From Minisyncoccota bacterium (GTDB lineage: Bacteria; Patescibacteriota; Minisyncoccia; UBA6257; 2-01-FULL-56-20), in assembly GCA_036266715.1 (NCBI GenBank), contig DATAXS010000006.1, positions 1,757 through 65,756 on the forward strand: 64,000 nucleotides of DNA. Reading direction: 5' to 3'. Position numbers and translations under genes: made by a program. The notes under the pieces were generated by a model, which did no database searches, was not told the DNA's origin, and was given only the letters and a program-made list of their open reading frames with translations. Shown in pieces: positions 7,797 to 43,067 of the stretch. The stretch's first letter is position 1. Every line of letters begins with the position of its first letter.

Positions 7797-8819
7797 TCAA
7801 GCCGCGAGACCGAGAAGATGGTTCATTTCTTTTGCATATGGCAATGGGCCGTCTATAAAAACCGAGACGACGGTCGTCCTGCCGTTCGGACCCACAATTT
7901 CGCTCGAGCGACCCGATTTATACATTTGTGCAATGTGGTTGTTTGTCCCTTGGATGACGAGTCCTGAGGTCCACCCTGCCGGAACGAGGTCGAGATAGAG
8001 TCTGCGGCTCATGATTGCCGCTTCTCTCTTACTGACTCCGGTTATGATGCGCTCAGAAGGGATTTCTTTCGTGTAATTGAATCCCGTTTCTCCAAGTCCC
8101 AAAATCGTTCTGCTTCCCGGGACTTTTTCTTCTTCTTTGTCTGAGGCGATACCCAGAACCTGCACATCTGGCAGGACTTCTCTGAAGTATATGCTCGCGG
8201 CGACGGCCGTGGACGTGGTACCGAGCGCCACAGAAAAGAGGAATCGAAAAGGAATACCGAGGCGATTCACTTCCCGTTCGATATGCGGCAGGGTAAATTC
8301 CCATTGCGCTTCGAGGCCGCCACGGTGAAGATATTGATTCACCTCAAAGTGCCCTTCTTGGTCCGCCATGAGATGCGCATACTCAATGGGAGACTTGCCG
8401 GTCGGAGCGTAAAGAATCTTTGCTCCGGCGAGCGTGAGCTGTTCTTGTTTGCCCTGCGGGGTTGAGGCGTCGATCACGGCGATAAAACCACCACTCTTTG
8501 TTCTCGGATCGACATCGGCCTCGAAGATTCCCTGCAGGAGACCAAAGCCCACACCCGCGTTGCCTGAAGTAGCTCCGATCCACTTTCTACCCTTGAGGTT
8601 TTCGGCCTCAAGGAAGCAGATTCCTGCGGCCGGGATCGTTTTGCCGTTAAAGGACGAAAGTCCTGAAAGCGCCAAAGCGAAGTGGTCAACATTTTTTGCA
8701 ATGGCCGGATCCATTCCTGCCTTCGCCGATTCCGGTAGGCGGATGATTGGAGGGAGGCCATGCTTGAGCATGTCGTAAAGCCTTCTTTGCCTTTCCGGAA
8801 GCTTATTGCGTATGATCAT
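7797..8819 (-). CDS. PLP-dependent enzyme, tryptophan-synthase-beta/cysteine-synthase-like fold
   Basis: 'SFNGKTIPAAG' (candidate PLP lysine) and 'KWIGATSGNAGVGFG', which resembles the SSGN(T/A)G phosphate-binding loop. Assigned by motifs only. Confidence 0.55.
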   Translation of the reverse strand: MIIRNKLPERQRRLYDMLKHGLPPIIRLPESAKAGMDPAIAKNVDHFALALSGLSSFNGKTIPAAGICFLEAENLKGRKWIGATSGNAGVGFGLLQGIFEADVDPRTKSGGFIAVIDASTPQGKQEQLTLAGAKILYAPTGKSPIEYAHLMADQEGHFEVNQYLHRGGLEAQWEFTLPHIEREVNRLGIPFRFLFSVALGTTSTAVAASIYFREVLPDVQVLGIASDKEEEKVPGSRTILGLGETGFNYTKEIPSERIITGVSKREAAIMSRRLYLDLVPAGWTSGLVIQGTNNHIAQMYKSGRSSEIVGPNGRTTVVSVFIDGPLPYAKEMNHLLGLAA

Positions 8820-10644: not shown

Positions 10645-12705
10645 ATGAAAAAACTCAAACAAATAAGCCTTTTCCTTCTTGTGCTTGCGGCGTATATCAT
10701 TTCCGGCAAACTAGGGCTCCAACTTGCGTCCATTCAGGCAAATGCCACGCCCATTTGGGCGCCCGCCGGTATTGCAACGGCGGCGCTCCTCATTCTGGGC
10801 TACCGTTTTTGGCCGGCAATATTTCTTGGTGCTTTTATTACGAATATTACGACGGGAGGAACGCCCGTGGCTGCAACGCTTGCAATCGCCATCGGCAACA
10901 CGCTGGAAGCGCTCCTTGCCGCCTACCTCGTGAACCGTTTTGCGAACGGCGTGCGTGCGCTCGATAAGACGGACAACGTGTTCCGCTTTGCGTTCCTCGC
11001 GGGCGGCGTGAGTCCCATGGTAAGCGCGACGATCGGGGTTACGAGCCTCTTCCTTGCGGGATCCCTGCATGCGGCGGACTTTACTTCCGTTTGGAGCACG
11101 TGGTGGCTGGGCGACGTGGGAGGCATGCTCATCATTGCGCCGTTCCTGCTCGCGTGGTTCACCGACCATGCGATCGAGTGGAGCACAAGAAAGATCCTTG
11201 AGGTCGTGGCGCTCGCCGCGCTGCTTTTTGCGTTTGCCCTTTTTGCGTTCAAAGGCACCCCGGGATTCATTTTTGTGTTCTACCTTTTTATTCCGGTTTT
11301 CGTATGGGTCGCGTTCCGGTTCAGCCAGCGGGAGACGGCGACCGTGCTCTTCGCCATGACCGAGATCACGCTTTATGAAACACTGCACGGCGAGGGGCCG
11401 TTCATCAATGCCGCGACGACGCTGAATGCGGCCCTGCTTCTTTTCCAGGCGGCGATGGTCACGATCGCTATCACCATGTTTGCGCTTTCCGCAGCGTCCG
11501 CCGAGGAACGGAAGCATGCGGTGGCGACCATACGGGCGAACGAACGGATGGAACAGGAAAAGGCGGTTGACGCGGCCATTATTGCGAGCGTGGGTGACGG
11601 GCTTATTGTGACCGACCAAGAAGGCAATATTGCGCTTGTAAATCCTCAAGCGGAAAAGTTTCTCGGCTGGCGGGCGGAGGAGATTGTCGGGAAAAAATAT
11701 TATGACGTGATCCAGGTGCAAAACGAGGATGGCGTGACCGTGGCGCTCTCCGAACGGCCGCTCGTGAAGACCGTCGCCGAACGGAAAAGGATTGCGAGTG
11801 GGCCGATGTTTGCCACGCGCTACTACGTGCGCAAGGACGGGGGCCGTTTCCCGGTTTCCTTCACCAAAACGCCCGTAATGCTCGGCGGCGAGGTCATCGG
11901 GACCATAGAAATTTTCCGCGACGCCACAAAGGGCGTGGAGATCGACCGCACAAAATCGGAGTTCGTATCGCTCGCGGCGCACCAGCTCCGCACGCCGCTT
12001 TCCATCATTGCCATGCACGCGGAGCTCCTCAAGAAGCAGGGCCAGCTTTTCGGCAACCACGACGAGGAGATGTGTGTGGATTATGCGACGGAGATCCACG
12101 ATGTTGCGATGCGCATGGCGGACCTCATCAACGACCTTCTGAACGTTTCCCGCATCGATACGCAGACGCTTGTCGTGACGCCGGGATCGGTCAATGTGCG
12201 GAGGCTTGTGGACGGTATCCTCCGGGAAATGGCGTTCAAGTTTTCCAGCCGGAATATTACCGTGCGCACGAACTATCCGGATCCCGCCCCGGAACTCGTG
12301 ACGGACCCACACCTTCTTGAGATCATAGTAGAGAATCTTTTGGGGAATGCGGTGAAATATACGCCTGAAGGGGGAAGGGTTTCCATTGTGGTGAGAGAAG
12401 AGGAGCTGGACATTGTGGTTACGATCACGGACACCGGCCACGGCATCCCGCATGCCCAGCACGGAGAAGTGTTCAAGAAATTTTTCCGTGCGGACAATGC
12501 GCGGCGGATGGCGAGCGAAGGCACCGGACTCGGCCTTTACATCGTGAAGTCGGTCGTGGAACGCCTGGGCGGTAGTATTTCCTTTGAGTCGCGCGAAGGC
12601 GAGGGGACGAGCTTTGTGGTGCATATTCCAAAGACGAGCGCGGAGGGACTGGGTATTCCGGAAGAAGACGATATTTCCACGCTCGCCGTGTCCTCTTCTT
12701 TATAA
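10645..12705 (+). CDS. sensor histidine kinase (MASE1 membrane domain - PAS - HisKA - HATPase_c)
   Basis: MASE1-like 'ISGKLGLQLASIQANATPIWAPAGIATAALLILG'. PAS 'GDGLIVTDQEGNIALVNPQAEKFLGW'. H-box 'SLAAHQLRTPLS'. N/G boxes 'LLGNAVKYTPEGG' and 'DTGHGIP..GTGLGLYIV'. ATG 10645 preferred over TTG 10600. Confidence 0.85.
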   Translation: MKKLKQISLFLLVLAAYIISGKLGLQLASIQANATPIWAPAGIATAALLILGYRFWPAIFLGAFITNITTGGTPVAATLAIAIGNTLEALLAAYLVNRFANGVRALDKTDNVFRFAFLAGGVSPMVSATIGVTSLFLAGSLHAADFTSVWSTWWLGDVGGMLIIAPFLLAWFTDHAIEWSTRKILEVVALAALLFAFALFAFKGTPGFIFVFYLFIPVFVWVAFRFSQRETATVLFAMTEITLYETLHGEGPFINAATTLNAALLLFQAAMVTIAITMFALSAASAEERKHAVATIRANERMEQEKAVDAAIIASVGDGLIVTDQEGNIALVNPQAEKFLGWRAEEIVGKKYYDVIQVQNEDGVTVALSERPLVKTVAERKRIASGPMFATRYYVRKDGGRFPVSFTKTPVMLGGEVIGTIEIFRDATKGVEIDRTKSEFVSLAAHQLRTPLSIIAMHAELLKKQGQLFGNHDEEMCVDYATEIHDVAMRMADLINDLLNVSRIDTQTLVVTPGSVNVRRLVDGILREMAFKFSSRNITVRTNYPDPAPELVTDPHLLEIIVENLLGNAVKYTPEGGRVSIVVREEELDIVVTITDTGHGIPHAQHGEVFKKFFRADNARRMASEGTGLGLYIVKSVVERLGGSISFESREGEGTSFVVHIPKTSAEGLGIPEEDDISTLAVSSSL

Positions 12706-39441: not shown

Positions 39442-39468
39442 AGCGGGAACCTCGGAGAGGTTCCCGCT
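39442..39468 (+). terminator. terminator-like hairpin after 36792..39425
   Basis: AGCGGGAACCTC-GGA-GAGGTTCCCGCT (12-bp perfect stem) 17 nt after the stop. No clear U-run follows. Confidence 0.5.
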
Positions 39469-39596
39469 GTGAACTTCTTAATTGGTATGCTTGCCGCGAT
39501 TGCCACGACTTTGCCCTCCTGTCCTGGATTTACACAGTTATGGGTTCAACCCGAAAATATGATAATAAGTTGTATGCTGTTCGTCAAATATTTTGC

Positions 39597-39630
39597 CCCG
39601 CGGGTGGAGGACGCGAGGACCTGCTTACCG
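39597..39630 (+). repeat. islet repeat, copy A (core TGGAGGACGCGAGGAC at 39605-39620)
   Basis: The core matches copy C at 13 of 16 positions. Confidence 0.5.
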
Positions 39631-39834
39631 GTCGATCAGGTATTTGCTGGCGACGCTTAATGCAAATGAAGGCAATATAATAAAAACGGTCGCGAAGAGG
39701 AGTTTCATAAGCGTAGTATGTAAATCTGAACTGTTTGCATCCCCTCCGTCAGGCAGTGTCAAAATGAATAAAATTCCTATAATGCCAAAAACGATTGAAG
39801 CATAGACAAATATGCGTGTAGCAATTTTTTGCAT
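39625..39834 (-). CDS. possible small membrane protein
   Basis: 69-aa ORF with two hydrophobic helices, no obvious RBS, in a low-GC region. Confidence 0.35.
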   Translation of the reverse strand: MQKIATRIFVYASIVFGIIGILFILTLPDGGDANSSDLHTTLMKLLFATVFIILPSFALSVASKYLIDR

Positions 39835-39898
39835 AGCTGTAGTATATCAATTATAAAGCCAACCGGCAATTATGGGTTTGAGTCTCATTCTCGTTCGT

Positions 39899-39930
39899 TG
39901 CTCCGGCGGGTGGGGGGGGAGTGAGAAGAT
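39899..39930 (+). repeat. islet repeat, copy B (contains TGCTCCGGCG, identical to the tRNA-Asn 3' end)
   Basis: The 10-mer tgctccggcg at 39899-39908 also occurs at 40329-40338 and 42994-43003, all in the same orientation. Confidence 0.5.
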
Positions 39931-39988
39931 GGCTAAGATAAAGAAGCGGCCCGCAAGGTTTGAACCTTGGACGGGCCGTGGACCGAAT

Positions 39989-40255
39989 TTATGTTTTCTC
40001 CCGGAAAAGGACCTTCGTCAAAGCATCCAGGAGCCGTGCGGAGATCCCGAACCTGCCGTGGATCTTTGCGCCGTTGGCAGATTTCGCCACACGCGCCATC
40101 TTTTCTTCGGAGAGCCCTTCGTGGAGAAGAGCTTTCCGAACGTCCTCATCGGGGAATGGATGTGCGTAATGCGCATGCGGATGACGTTTGCCGTACTGTC
40201 GGAGGATCTCAACGATGTTCAAAAAGTGATGAGAAGTAACTCCATGATGTGACAT
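39989..40255 (-). CDS. hypothetical small His-rich protein
   Basis: 88-aa ORF. Consensus AGGAGG (40267-40262) lies 6 nt upstream of ATG 40255. Confidence 0.55.
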   Translation of the reverse strand: MSHHGVTSHHFLNIVEILRQYGKRHPHAHYAHPFPDEDVRKALLHEGLSEEKMARVAKSANGAKIHGRFGISARLLDALTKVLFREKT

Positions 40256-40328
40256 TAATGACCTCCTGGGACATCATGCTGTAAATAAAATAAAACTTCA
40301 TTTCATTTTTGTCCAGTTTTGGAGCATT

Positions 40329-40368
40329 TGCTCCGGCGGTTGGAGGACGTCAGAACTTATTTAACCGT
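40329..40368 (+). repeat. islet repeat, copy C (TGCTCCGGCG + core TGGAGGACGTCAGAAC)
   Basis: 10-mer shared with the tRNA-Asn 3' end. The core at 40341-40356 matches copy D at 15 of 16 positions. The downstream 'gaacttatttaac' resembles tRNA-Asn 'gaaccttatccttaac'. Confidence 0.55.
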
Positions 40369-40403
40369 TTGAGAGGCTCACTTTGGTATCATTCATATAT
40401 ATC

Positions 40404-41986
40404 ATGGCCCGCTTTTCTCGCGCACTATTTTTTGGCATAATAGCGGTTTCCGTCGGCGCGATTTTTGTGCACGCTTCCGCGTATACCTTTAGCCACGATC
40501 TAAAATACGGTGACACGGAAGTCGATGTATCATATCTCCAGGATTTTCTTACGGATCAAGGATATTTCCACCATTCAATCACGGATTATTATGGGCCAAT
40601 CACGCTCGCCGCGGTGAAGACATGGCAAACGGCATTCCTTCCACGGGATATTTTGGGCCGATCAGCAGGGCATTCGTAGCGGCAGGGAATGGTATGGTGT
40701 CTCTTCCGACAACCGATGATTCTCCGTCCTCAGCATCGGGACCAATACTAATGTTCAATGGCGTTCCTCTCGCCGATATCGGCCTTGGGCCCAAGTTTGT
40801 GGTGAATGGCGGCGGCAACGGGCCTTGCGGCGGGAGCTGCGGTGATCAATCGAATAACAGCAACAGCACGCCCCCCGCAATTTCTGTTTCGGTGATTCCT
40901 TCCGCTACGACGACGCTCTCGGGGGCCACAACCACTTTTACCGCAACGGTTGCGAATACTTCCGATCAAACCGTCACGTGGTCGGCAACGCTTGGCGTGA
41001 TCGACGCATCGTCGGGCGCCTATATAGCTCCTACTGCCTTTGCGACGACCACGGACACGGTAACCGCGCGCTCGAACGCGGACAATACGAAAACGGATAC
41101 TGCAACGGTGACGATTAATCCGGTCCCCGTGACCATTTCGATTTCGCCCACGTCGACCTCGGTCATGTCTGATGGATCAATCAGTTTTAATGCGACTGTC
41201 ACGAATGGTTCCACGAGCACGGTGAACTGGAGCGCAGCGCTCGGCACCATCAATGCGTCGGGTACATATACTGCGCCTACACTCAGTTCGTCCACATTTT
41301 CCGCGACGGACACGGTAACCGCCGTGAGCGTGGCTGATAATACAAAGGTTGCGACCGCAACTGTTTCGATCACGAACGCGTTGACCGATTGGTGGAAACT
41401 TGATGAGGGGACCGGGACGGTCGCGATCGACAGCATGAATAGTGCCCATAACGGCAACTGGCATGGCACAGAGGCTGGTACGGCCGGGTATTATGGCGCC
41501 GCGCGTCCATCTTCAACGCTCGCATTCTCCGGCATCTTCGATGGTACGAACGACTACATTGACCCAAGTCTGACGGTCGACTATACGACGACATTGTCCT
41601 TTACCTGGAGTATTTGGATGGACTTGAGCTCGAGCATCCAGCCCGACAACGTTATTCTTGGCGACCGGCTCAATCCGCTTTGGGTCAAGCTCACACCAAC
41701 TGCGTTTGAATATTACAATGGCGCACTCATCCACAATACTATTCCCACCGGCCAGTGGGCGTACATCGCCGTCGTAAAATCCGGCACGAGCTTCTACTAT
41801 TATCAAAACGGGACGCTGGAAGGCTCGGCATCATCGACTGATGTTCCGGGGGATCTCAATTTCTTTATCGGCACCGATCCTAATTCAAATGGAGATGGTT
41901 ATACATGGGGGTCTTTGAGCGATGTGAGGATCTATAGCACCGCACTTTCACAGGCACAAGTGCAGGCGATATACAATGGAAACTAA
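40404..41986 (+). pseudogene. frameshifted gene for a secreted PG_binding_1 - 2x Ig-like - LamG (Laminin_G_3) surface protein
   Basis: ORF 40383/40404..40679 encodes a signal anchor and the first part of a PG_binding_1 domain ('LQDFLTDQGYF...YYGPITLAAVKTWQ'). The rest of that domain ('ANGIPSTGYFGPISRAF') continues in the -1 frame in ORF 40622..41986. The frames switch near 40620-40631. Confidence 0.65.
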
Positions 41987-41993
41987 ACAAAAC

Positions 41994-42030
41994 CGCTAGT
42001 GGATGACGTCAGAACCTGTCTTTCTTTACA
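41994..42030 (+). repeat. islet repeat, copy D (core TGGATGACGTCAGAAC at 42000-42015)
   Basis: Lies 14 nt after the stop at 41986 and ~190 nt upstream of the sigma-factor start. Confidence 0.5.
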
Positions 42031-42205
42031 GCTTTCTCGATAAACCTGGGATTCCCCGCCGCCGGTCGCAGGTACTGACCAGTTCGAGTTTTTTCTTGAC
42101 AAAGTTATTCTCGGTAGGTAATGTGATGTGAGCATTCAGGATTTCGTAGCACCCACGCAGTCCGTTTTACATTTTTATCTCGCCCCGCGGGGCAAGGAGG
42201 TTCAC

Positions 42206-42925
42206 ATGGTAGCATCGGCTCAAGTAATATCGTCCGACATGATGAATGACCTGCCCGATGCGGAGCTCGTCGCGCTTCTCAAGGCAGGGAACAAGGACGC
42301 AATGACCCCTCTTTTCCGCCGCTATCGACGGCTTCTCCTCGCTATCGCGGGAAGAATTCTTTGGAACTATCCCGAAGGAGAGGCAGAAGAACTTGTCCAG
42401 GAAATATTCCTCGAGTTCTGGATCAAGATCGAGCGTTTCGATCCCACACGCAGCACCACAAAGGCTTGGCTTATGAAGCTCGCGTACAGCCGTAGCTTTG
42501 ATCGCGCAAAATTTCTCAAGTGTCATTTCGGCGGGCGTCAAAAAGTGTTTTCGGAGGACACTCTCCCCGATCCTCTGCGTCCGCACGAAAAAACGCAGCA
42601 GGAAGTGGAGGACGACGAACTCGCGCGGACAGACCAGGACAAAGAGGAAGTTATCCTGATTGCGTTCGAGCAGTTGAAAGTGGCGGGAGCAAAGAGAGAC
42701 ACCTTGGATCTGCAGATACGGTGCATGAAAATGGTGTTTTTTGAGAATCTCCCGATCAGGGAAGTCGCGAAGAGGATCAACGAATCCTACGGGCAAACGA
42801 GGAATCACTACTACCGGGGGTTGAAGTTGCTGCGTTCCACGGTGGAAAAGATCCTTGAAGAGAGGGCGGGAGCTCGACTAAAGAAACGTATTGTAGCATC
42901 TATGAACAGTAATGGTGCGCAGTGA
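42206..42925 (+). CDS. sigma-70 family RNA polymerase sigma factor (ECF-like, regions 2 and 4)
   Basis: Region 2 'EELVQEIFLEFWIKIERFDPTRSTTKAWLMKLAYSRSFD'. Region 4 HTH 'LPIREVAKRINESYGQTRNHYYRGLKLLR'. AGGAGG lies 5 nt upstream of ATG 42206. Confidence 0.8.
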   Translation: MVASAQVISSDMMNDLPDAELVALLKAGNKDAMTPLFRRYRRLLLAIAGRILWNYPEGEAEELVQEIFLEFWIKIERFDPTRSTTKAWLMKLAYSRSFDRAKFLKCHFGGRQKVFSEDTLPDPLRPHEKTQQEVEDDELARTDQDKEEVILIAFEQLKVAGAKRDTLDLQIRCMKMVFFENLPIREVAKRINESYGQTRNHYYRGLKLLRSTVEKILEERAGARLKKRIVASMNSNGAQ

Positions 42926-42995
42926 AAAATCACAATAACCCGGGCGGCGCGAAAATCTCGTGCCGCCCTTTTTTGGCCAGGGTGTTTATCAAGTG

Positions 42996-43067
42996 CTCCG
43001 GCGCCAGGATTCGAACCTGGAACCTTATCCTTAACAGGGATTTGCTCTACCGTTGAGCTACGCCGGA
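42996..43067 (-). tRNA. tRNA-Asn: tRNA-Asn (anticodon GTT)
   Basis: Minus strand: acceptor TCCGGCG/CGCCGGA, D arm GCTC-AACGGTA-GAGC, anticodon loop CT-GTT-AA, T arm CCAGG-TTCGAAT-CCTGG, discriminator G. CCA is not encoded. One A.A mismatch at the top of the anticodon stem. Confidence 0.85.

Follow-up and report, generated by a model that had tools for sequence, protein, structure and literature searches.

The locus behind tRNA-Asn

The DNA analyzed here is a stretch of 64,000 nucleotides (nt), called the window below, from an uncultured bacterium of the candidate phyla radiation (CPR)/Patescibacteria that belongs to a Paceibacteria lineage. It is contained in the 81-kb JGI metagenome contig Ga0376690_0000664 (sample 3300036820) and is also deposited at NCBI within a Candidatus Paceibacterota MAG (locus tags VHZ04_). 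Our subject is a family of short repeats, Elements A to D, in the 3.4 kb adjoining the 3' end of the tRNA-Asn gene; these repeats probably record successive insertions at that gene. Read outward from the tRNA, the order is tRNA, sigma factor, Element D, a PG-binding/LamG pseudogene, Element C, the gene hth88, Element B, the gene tm69, and Element A (Table 1). All four copies are intergenic, lie on one strand within 2.4 kb, and have exactly one gene between successive copies. Beyond Element A come an orphan promoter and terminator and then a convergent gene for a surface protein of 877 amino acids (aa).

The region is compositionally distinct. Positions 39597-42994 contain 51.3% G+C, compared with 55.2% for the whole window and 55-57% for the flanks, and they form the lowest-GC 3.4 kb of the window (0.7% of windows of the same size are as low; tetranucleotide distance, z = 2.1). 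A preliminary description of this DNA had reported lower GC, including 38% for 39661-39720, and the hand count of that interval (23 of 60) agrees. Its report of a frameshifted surface-protein gene and of an extracytoplasmic function (ECF)-type sigma factor is likewise borne out by the open reading frames (ORFs), Pfam, and TIGR02937. Over the stretch from the sigma-factor gene to NrdA, an independent Logan assembly (SRR11836411) is identical to the window.

Table 1. Features of the tRNA-Asn locus, listed outward from the tRNA, and recombinase genes at the same tRNA in two relatives
Feature	Coordinates	Strand	Description
tRNA-Asn(GTT)	42995-43067	minus	ARAGORN; Rfam RF00005, 69.6 bits; anchor (putative attB/attL side)
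Unit 1 cargo, ECF-type sigma-70 family factor	42206-42925	plus	Pfam Sigma70_r2; TIGR02937, 54.8 bits (cutoff 42.9)
Element D	41992-42023	minus	Arm GGTTCTGACGTCATCCAC intact, core decayed (CTAGCGG..); element profile E 6.8e-5
Unit 2 cargo, PG_binding_1 + Ig-like + LamG surface-protein gene	40404-41986	plus	ORFs 40404-40679 and 40622-41986, split by a frameshift
Element C	40320-40364	minus	Most complete copy: arm GTTCTGACGTCCTCCAAC and core CGCCGGAGCAAAT; element profile E 1.9e-7
Unit 3 cargo, hth88, 88-aa ORFan	39989-40255	minus	AGGAGG ribosome-binding site; unit of ~430 bp
Element B	39887-39936	minus	Core CCGCCGGAGCAA intact, arm decayed; element profile E 0.028; upstream of tm69
Unit 4 cargo, tm69, 69-aa predicted membrane protein	39625-39834	minus	ORF call
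Element A	39581-39627	minus	Arm GGTCCTCGCGTCCTCCAC; core CGC-GGGGCA (one deletion, one substitution); element profile E 2e-6
Distal flank after Element A	39442-39587	minus	Sigma-70-like promoter 39587-39559; hairpin terminator 39468-39442
Serine recombinase ORF, L005	11663-13348	minus	Runs antisense through the tRNA-Asn 3' half to its stop
Serine recombinase ORF, L083	763-2388	minus	Runs antisense through the tRNA-Asn 3' half to its stop

Two motifs, one element

Two motifs had been described at this locus as separate repeats. The 10-mer TGCTCCGGCG is found, as stated, in exact copies at 42994 (the 3' end of tRNA-Asn), 40329, and 39899, on the plus strand in every case. A fourth exact copy, overlooked in the preliminary description, lies at 8421-8430 within a minus-strand PALP-domain gene (7797-8819); its flanks have no similarity to the elements, and it is a chance occurrence. 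Chance expectations were taken from 100 shuffles, which give 0.40 copies of the 10-mer and in no case reach 4, whereas with one mismatch allowed the 10 observed copies are at the chance level of 9. The 16-nt motif TGGAKGACGYSAGRAC occurs in the window only at the reported positions 39605, 40341, and 42000, even when 2 mismatches are allowed (expectation, 0.56; 1 of 100 shuffles reaches 3). A 12-mer common to two sites inside 4.5 kb is not by itself above chance, and an unrelated exact 13-mer repeat was also found in the same 4.5-kb region (repeat search, D17).

Both motifs are real, but alignment of the four sites indicates that they are not separate: they belong to one element of ~45 nt. In the orientation of the tRNA, an arm (consensus cAGGTTCTGACgTCcTCCAC) comes first and a core, CGCCGGAGCA, second; the 16-mer corresponds to the arm and the 10-mer to the core, each as its reverse complement. 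The core common to the elements corresponds to the acceptor 3' strand, the discriminator, and the first trailer bases of tRNA-Asn (plus-strand positions 42994-43003), and it often runs on into ..TTGAC. It is present at the tRNA end and in Elements B and C, decayed in A, and mostly gone from D. Element C, which lies between the divergent hth88 and PG-binding genes, has a 13-mer identical to the tRNA end plus trailer of a relative (L082; see below) and matches Element B at 17 of 19 positions (repeat D7). Element D is placed between the LamG stop codon and the region upstream of the sigma factor; like Element C, it contains the palindrome GACGTC/TGACGTCA. In Element B, part of the arm is replaced by a G8 homopolymer at 39911-39918 (C8 in tRNA orientation), which may be prone to slippage or to sequencing errors.

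Leave-one-out profiles recovered Elements A, C, and D each as the best match outside the training set (A at E 0.038). The profile built from all four copies yielded no further match in the window, and the element profile gave no convincing match in the extra parts of the source genome (best E, 0.89). Word searches in viral and metagenomic data were uninformative: matches in IMG/VR to TGGAKGACGTCAGAAC (14 matches) and TTGCTCCGGCGGKTGG (38 matches) are attributed to chance, with flanking identity at the random level throughout, and a scan of one JGI metagenome for CNNKTGGAKGACGYSAGRACYTRY gave 18 single matches that are due to chance or lie within conserved coding sequence.

The locus in related genomes

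The locus was compared with loci from relatives (L002-L006, L082, L083, L156, L157, and L158). The closest genomes by NrdB have 90-92% identity, and L082 is the closest relative by the 226-aa protein p226 (71% identical). The gene order transketolase, GAPDH, DUF192, LTD, NrdA, NrdB, p226, tRNA-Asn is kept in all relatives compared for synteny (L002-L006, L082, L083, L156, and L157), and tRNA-Asn is found in all relatives when intron-bearing copies are counted. Synteny breaks exactly at tRNA-Asn: it is lost immediately past this gene, and everything beyond differs.

The same element recurs in one of these genomes. In L003 (DATKNL010000004.1, a 21-kb locus; NrdB 91% identical), the window-derived profile matched sites downstream of tRNA-Asn, where four clear copies (r1 to r4) and a possible decayed fifth (r5) occur in tRNA orientation, one behind each of five plus-strand genes. 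The layout of an L003 unit is promoter, gene, hairpin terminator, element, and the TTGAC that ends r1, r3, and r4, and that also lies directly past the L003 tRNA, supplies the -35 box for a good promoter of the sigma-70 type ahead of the next gene. As in the window, the array is lower in GC than its surroundings (54.7%, compared with 61.9% and 57.9% for the flanks).

Profile searches between the two genomes succeed in both directions. A profile built only from r1-r4 returned Elements C, D, and A of the window as its first three matches (E 1.2e-4, 0.019, and 0.033) and the tRNA-Asn end as its fifth, and a profile built only from A-D returned r3 and r4 as its first two matches in L003. These reciprocal recoveries effectively exclude chance as the source of the likeness. 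The non-tRNA arm GGTTCTGACgTCcTCCAC is kept across eight copies in the two genomes. The exact 13-mer GGAGCACTTGACT is present in L003 at both the tRNA end and r1. Copy r3 has CGCCGGAGC, the acceptor type of the window and L082, and not the CTGCGGAGC of L003 itself.

In L082, the element profile matches best at the 3' end of tRNA-Asn (E 0.0085), where the tRNA end plus trailer, CGCCGGAGCAAATTGAC, fits the core consensus; L082 also has a Fic/HTH_17 gene pair beside weak element copies. The loci of the other relatives contained nothing at E < 1.

Recombinases and junctions

The preliminary description had found no integrase, and the screen of the window, which covered ORFs of at least 220 aa and the JGI gene lists, agrees. 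Relatives do have recombinases at this tRNA. In L005 (OY970358.1, a complete chromosome) and L083, a large serine recombinase of 541-561 aa with Resolvase, Recombinase, and Zn_ribbon_recom domains abuts tRNA-Asn on the reverse strand. Both ORFs cross the tRNA 3' half (Table 1), which places the att site inside the 3' end of the recombinase gene, such that integration would alter the C terminus of the protein. In L156, a Recombinase-domain gene lies ~8 kb downstream of tRNA-Asn. A search of IMG/VR found no relatives of the L083 recombinase.

Putative att sites were aligned on the dinucleotide after GGAGC as the inferred center. In this register, TTCTGA occupies positions -26 to -21 in Element C, in r1 and r2 of L003, and in a weak L082 copy (L082e2), and TTCTGAA appears in register with those arms when the element-side arm of the L083 junction is mirrored. 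The T-loop TTCGAA of the tRNA lies at -21 to -16, 5 bp closer to the inferred center. In serine integrases, attP half-sites are inverted repeats ~20-26 bp from the central dinucleotide, and the outer motif is 5 bp closer in attB. The offset between TTCTGA and TTCGAA matches this rule and provides a lead; it depends on the inferred center, and the tRNA-proximal arms of the units have no mirrored motif. The element arm also has a 9-mer likeness (TCATCCAAC) to the mirrored arm of the L005 junction; this likeness is 9 nt out of register and was dismissed as coincidence.

The tRNA-Asn gene itself is interrupted in several relatives by an insertion in the anticodon loop after CCCTGT, which causes ARAGORN and the Rfam tRNA model (RF00005), the two methods used for tRNA calls, to miss the gene. 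The insertion is ~236 nt in L083 (657-891) and L002 (~11775-11990) and is also seen in L158; in L156 (~10770-11360) and L157 (~10740-11310), it is ~600 nt and contains small ORFs. Against Rfam Intron_gpI, the L083 insert scores 25 bits (local E 2e-4), which falls short of the gathering score of 50, and group I introns in the tRNA-Asn(GUU) of Paceibacteria are likely. An initial reading of the L083 tRNA as split by the recombinase element proved wrong: the split is caused by the ~236-nt group-I-intron-like insert, and the recombinase element begins past the intact 3' end.

Probable tandem accretion at the tRNA

We consider the elements to be probably attR-type scars of serial site-specific integration at the 3' end of tRNA-Asn, that is, of tandem accretion. 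Positions 39595-42993 would then comprise four tandem inserted units of ~1.0, 1.7, 0.43, and 0.30 kb with one gene each, and the tRNA-distal end of each unit would be an attR-type site of ~45 nt made up of an element-derived arm and a tRNA-like core. A new insert would enter directly behind the mature tRNA end, thereby keeping the tRNA intact, and would push older units and their sites outward. The expected anatomy of such an attR is element arm, shared core, and then older downstream sequence, and the series would correspond to repeated accretion at one attB.

The foreign acceptor variant in r3 suggests that the insert brought with it the left part of the site, up to and including the acceptor strand, which in turn would place the crossover at or to the right of GGAGC, past the mature tRNA end. 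The recombinase would most likely be of the large serine type, like those at the same tRNA in relatives, an indirect assignment. The units may be integrase-less cassettes that can be mobilized in trans or in cis, or remnants of larger elements. For L005 and L083, the elements with a recombinase would be predicted to have an attR that reads GGTTCTGA-N15-GGAGC, followed by a TTGAC-type trailer. The repeat family with its placement and orientation, its conservation across genomes, the synteny break, the lower GC, and the recombinase genes at this tRNA in relatives are observations; we infer that the elements are recombination sites and that the crossover falls just after GGAGC, and the recombinase family and any present-day mobility are likewise inferred. 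The proposal in the preliminary description that the repeats are att remnants of tRNA-targeted integration, in a decayed, integrase-less islet of lower GC, is supported by the synteny break, the serine recombinases at this tRNA in relatives, and the recurrence in L003. Its one or two nested segments are replaced by four serial units bounded by D, C, B, and A.

Several observations weigh against tandem accretion. The array is seen in two genomes only, plus the weak traces in L082, and neither the window nor the readable contig parts contain a recombinase gene. Identity with the tRNA extends over only 10-13 nt, and single-copy similarity past that is not significant. Element B, the weakest member of the family, was not recovered by the leave-one-out profile. 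The tRNA-proximal sides of the units lack the inverted-repeat arm of a symmetric serine-recombinase attP. A serine-integrase attL is no substrate for a further attP x attB reaction, so accretion would need each insert to regenerate an attB-like right arm. Neither an empty site nor a circular junction or a presence/absence polymorphism was encountered. Finally, TTGAC, which is conserved at the right end, also serves as a -35 box, and part of the conservation could therefore be transcriptional.

A bolder version, to which we give limited credence, makes the locus a cassette-capture platform of Paceibacteria at tRNA-Asn that resembles integrons and runs on a different chemistry, with single-gene units of 0.3-1.7 kb moved singly in trans and the target regenerated. 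A unit would then consist of a single gene together with a terminator and a -10 box of its own, the core of the ~45-nt site would supply the -35 box, and the gene for the large serine recombinase would reside elsewhere, on the bigger elements found at this tRNA in relatives.

The mobile elements and gene-gain routes of the tiny CPR/Patescibacteria genomes are poorly charted, and this locus offers a concrete, testable case in which tRNA-Asn is an integration hot spot in a Paceibacteria lineage. The inserts have shrunk to single genes, with surface-protein, sigma-factor, acetyltransferase, and ORFan cargo. A defined site of ~45 nt can now be searched for in other genomes, and L005 and L083 supply candidate large serine recombinases. 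If the single-gene units are individually mobile, the locus is of clear interest for CPR genome dynamics: it would be a counterpart of integron cassette capture that uses a serine recombinase, and compact att/recombinase pairs could be drawn from it. Otherwise, it offers a clean case of tandem accretion with decay, comparable to the ssrA islands of Dehalococcoides to which we return below.

Alternative explanations

The main rival to tandem accretion is that the element is a transcriptional control module upstream of the -35 box (an activator or repressor site, or an UP-like element) and that its likeness to the tRNA is incidental. The promoters give this some substance: the TTGAC of r1, r3, and r4 and that past the tRNA serve as -35 boxes in L003; Element A is followed by TTGACG-17-TATCAT; Element C lies 12 nt upstream of the hth88 promoter TGGACA-17-TATTTT; and the palindrome shared by C and D could suit a regulatory site. 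However, Element D has no downstream gene on the element strand, the promoter past Element A drives nothing recognizable, and the distance from element to -35 box varies from 0 to 29 nt. Nor would a control module account for a core that follows the tRNA-Asn acceptor sequences, with a foreign acceptor variant in r3, or for elements that occur only beside tRNA-Asn in two genomes, at a lower-GC synteny break where relatives have recombinases at the same tRNA. The two arrays have no regulator in common, hth88 being an ORFan and the 21-kb L003 locus having no sigma homologue by tblastn. We regard this explanation as unlikely. Its narrower form, a regulatory site tied to the ECF-type sigma factor, had been raised in the preliminary description and is unlikely as well. 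In ECF promoters, a GGAAC-like -35 and a CGT-like -10 motif are separated by 16-17 nt; they precede the sigma gene and the genes of its regulon and co-occur with the sigma gene. In the motif here, GAAC and CGTC are adjacent and not spaced, the elements take every orientation relative to the genes, and those of L003 occur in a locus where tblastn finds no sigma homologue.

The alternation of single genes with directly oriented sites of one family also recalls an integron-like platform or a cluster of attC sites lacking integron-integrases (CALIN), in which a tyrosine recombinase would act on attC-like sites and the tRNA end would serve as attI; recombination among sites of one type would be possible, so that arrays would form easily. 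We think this very unlikely, since no IntI or tyrosine recombinase was found among the ORFs and gene lists screened, and the recombinases seen at this tRNA in relatives are of the serine type. Folded as single-stranded DNA, the eight elements, each of ~45 nt, have z values of -0.87 to +1.53 relative to shuffles and no common hairpin, and the units have their own promoters and terminators and point in both directions in the window. It is just as doubtful that the copies derive from the tRNA-Asn 3' half as its decayed duplicates, produced by duplication or by tyrosine-integrase prophages, with no family-specific arm. The 10-mer does sit at the tRNA end in the right orientation, and a MAFFT alignment of the elements with the tRNA can be obtained from AGGTTC onward, but local alignment of single copies to the tRNA 3' half stops at the 10-mer, and background matches score equally high. 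In an anchored alignment test, Element C, which the preliminary description had taken for a decayed tRNA 3' half, reaches only p = 0.07 (A, B, and D, p >= 0.17); what lies to the left of its 10-mer is the non-tRNA arm. The conservation of this non-tRNA stretch, TCTGACgTCcTCCAC, between two genomes cannot be explained by independent decay of tRNA fragments, and the idea was dropped. Least probable is coincidence, that is, short GC-rich words recurring in AT-richer intergenic DNA. The fourth 10-mer copy in a coding region, the chance-level count with one mismatch, and the unrelated 13-mer are of the kind that it predicts; against it, the cross-genome profiles recover the copies as top matches both ways, and the copies share a strand, are all intergenic, and all lie beside the same tRNA.

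Cargo genes and neighboring sequence

The units of the window have their own promoters and terminators and mixed gene orientation. The sigma-factor gene of unit 1 has no adjacent anti-sigma gene and is followed by a terminator at 42942-42968. Its promoter, read from the sequence as TTGACA-17-TAATGT, is nearer to the gene than Element D is. The closest homologue, in L085 from the same metagenome, is 50% identical and has an anti-sigma neighbor and no element upstream. A perfect 12-nt palindrome, GCCCCGCGGGGC, at 42182-42193 directly precedes the ribosome-binding site (AAGGAGG) of the sigma-factor gene; it is similar to the left part of Element A (TTTTGCCCCGCGGG; repeats D1 and I4) and may be a hairpin in the 5' untranslated region that controls translation. 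The unit nearest the tRNA encodes a transcription-machinery-like protein in two genomes, the orphan ECF-type sigma factor in the window and, at L082:1266-1826, a 186-aa protein with a match to the C-terminal domain of the RNA polymerase alpha subunit (Pfam E 3.4e-7).

The frameshift in the PG_binding_1/LamG gene of unit 2 is located at GGCAAACGGCA (40624-40634; region 40620-40640). Restoring a second copy of the 7-mer GGCAAAC would rejoin the two ORFs as ...AVKTWQTANGIPSTGYFGP..., with a normal PG_binding_1 domain. The frameshift is either a slipped 7-nt repeat or an assembly error, and the Logan contig ends within this gene.

No homologue of hth88 at E <= 0.001 was found in 5.8e9 clusters or in an exhaustive search of 1.84e9 representatives. 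With no Pfam, PHROG, or NCBIfam match either, its candidacy as a regulator or excisionase was rejected. The predicted membrane protein tm69 has a homologue in L003 that is 59% identical and lies 8.6 kb downstream of the L003 tRNA-Asn. PHROG matches of cargo proteins to a holin, an endolysin, and a virion protein are weak and generic and were set aside as evidence of a prophage.

Between the promoter and the terminator of the distal flank (39442-39587), there is no credible gene; the sequence reads TTGACG-17-TATCAT, AGGAGG, a GTG start, and, ~40 nt further on, a strong terminator. It may be a unit that is now dead, encode a small RNA, or represent the original region downstream of the tRNA. Elsewhere in the window, a low-GC stretch of ~1.5 kb (53509-54894) lies between the genes for the N-terminal and C-terminal subunits of transketolase and includes a 176-aa membrane protein and two minus-strand ORFs (63 and 194 aa) without a Pfam match. 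Positions 54001-55000, at 45.5% GC, have the lowest 1-kb value of the window. Because the transketolase genes are adjacent in L156, this stretch may be a second small insertion.

Comparison with known systems

The closest analogue of the locus is the set of genomic islands at ssrA (ssrA-GIs) in Dehalococcoides, which are tandem islands that are each bounded by a 20-bp sequence that repeats the 3' end of ssrA (McMurdie et al. 2009, 2011; PMC2764846, PMC3146451). A 15-bp non-ssrA motif, TTCAGRSMGMRKCCA, lies directly upstream of every repeat (PMC3146451), and a CcrB-like serine recombinase of ~540 aa (DsiB/CcrB family) is encoded on the reverse strand next to attL (PMC2764846, PMC3146451). Fifteen ssrA-GIs have no integration module and have been proposed to be mobilizable in cis or fixed (PMC3146451). 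In both cases, a streamlined genome has a single small-RNA anchor with tandem inserts on its 3' side, the boundaries combine a repeat of the anchor 3' end with a conserved non-gene motif directly upstream, and the inserted region is low in GC and breaks synteny. Both also have a reverse-strand serine recombinase of ~540 aa at attL, seen here in the relatives L005 and L083, and both include members without an integrase, as in the array of the window.

The two non-gene motifs can be compared directly. The window arm TTCTGACGTCCTCCA matches TTCAGRSMGMRKCCA at 11 of 15 positions, Element D at 12 of 15, and r2 of L003 at 13 of 15, all in one register; for a random 34-mer, at least 11 matches have P = 0.042 and at least 13 have P = 0.0009. 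The systems differ in the anchor, which is tRNA-Asn here and transfer-messenger RNA in Dehalococcoides, and in the repeat, which is 10-13 nt instead of 20. The inferred crossover falls after the discriminator here and in the T-loop there. The units of 0.3-1.7 kb with a single gene contrast with multigene islands that have a six-gene integration module. Finally, the host here belongs to the Patescibacteria, and the screen of the window found no recombinase gene; the recombinases of the relatives are likened to DsiB by size and placement.

Other systems share fewer of these features. Tyrosine-integrase islands and prophages of tRNA genes (P4-like) also target the tRNA 3' end and have a direct repeat at the far boundary, atypical composition, and strain-variable content; theirs, however, is usually an integrase beside the tRNA and a true tRNA duplicate of 15-60 nt, whereas the present locus lacks a tyrosine integrase, has only a short identity with the tRNA, and includes a non-tRNA arm specific to the family. 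Integrons and CALINs are similar in that most of their units are single genes and every unit is followed by a site from one family of recombination sites, but their attC sites are imperfect hairpins of 57-141 nt that IntI recombines as single strands, which is not so here, and their cassettes are promoterless and co-oriented, in contrast to the units with their own promoters and mixed orientation in the window. Staphylococcal cassette chromosome (SCC) elements at rlmH/orfX differ in that they target a protein gene at its 3' end, measure 10-60 kb, require two recombinases, and are hosted by Staphylococcus. The SCC elements (CcrAB) are nevertheless alike in the tandem accretion by serine recombinases at one site, the direct repeats at the boundaries, and the units that in some cases lack a recombinase (PMC3146451). 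Overall, the locus most likely represents a known process, tandem accretion at a small-RNA gene by a serine recombinase, in an unusually miniaturized form.

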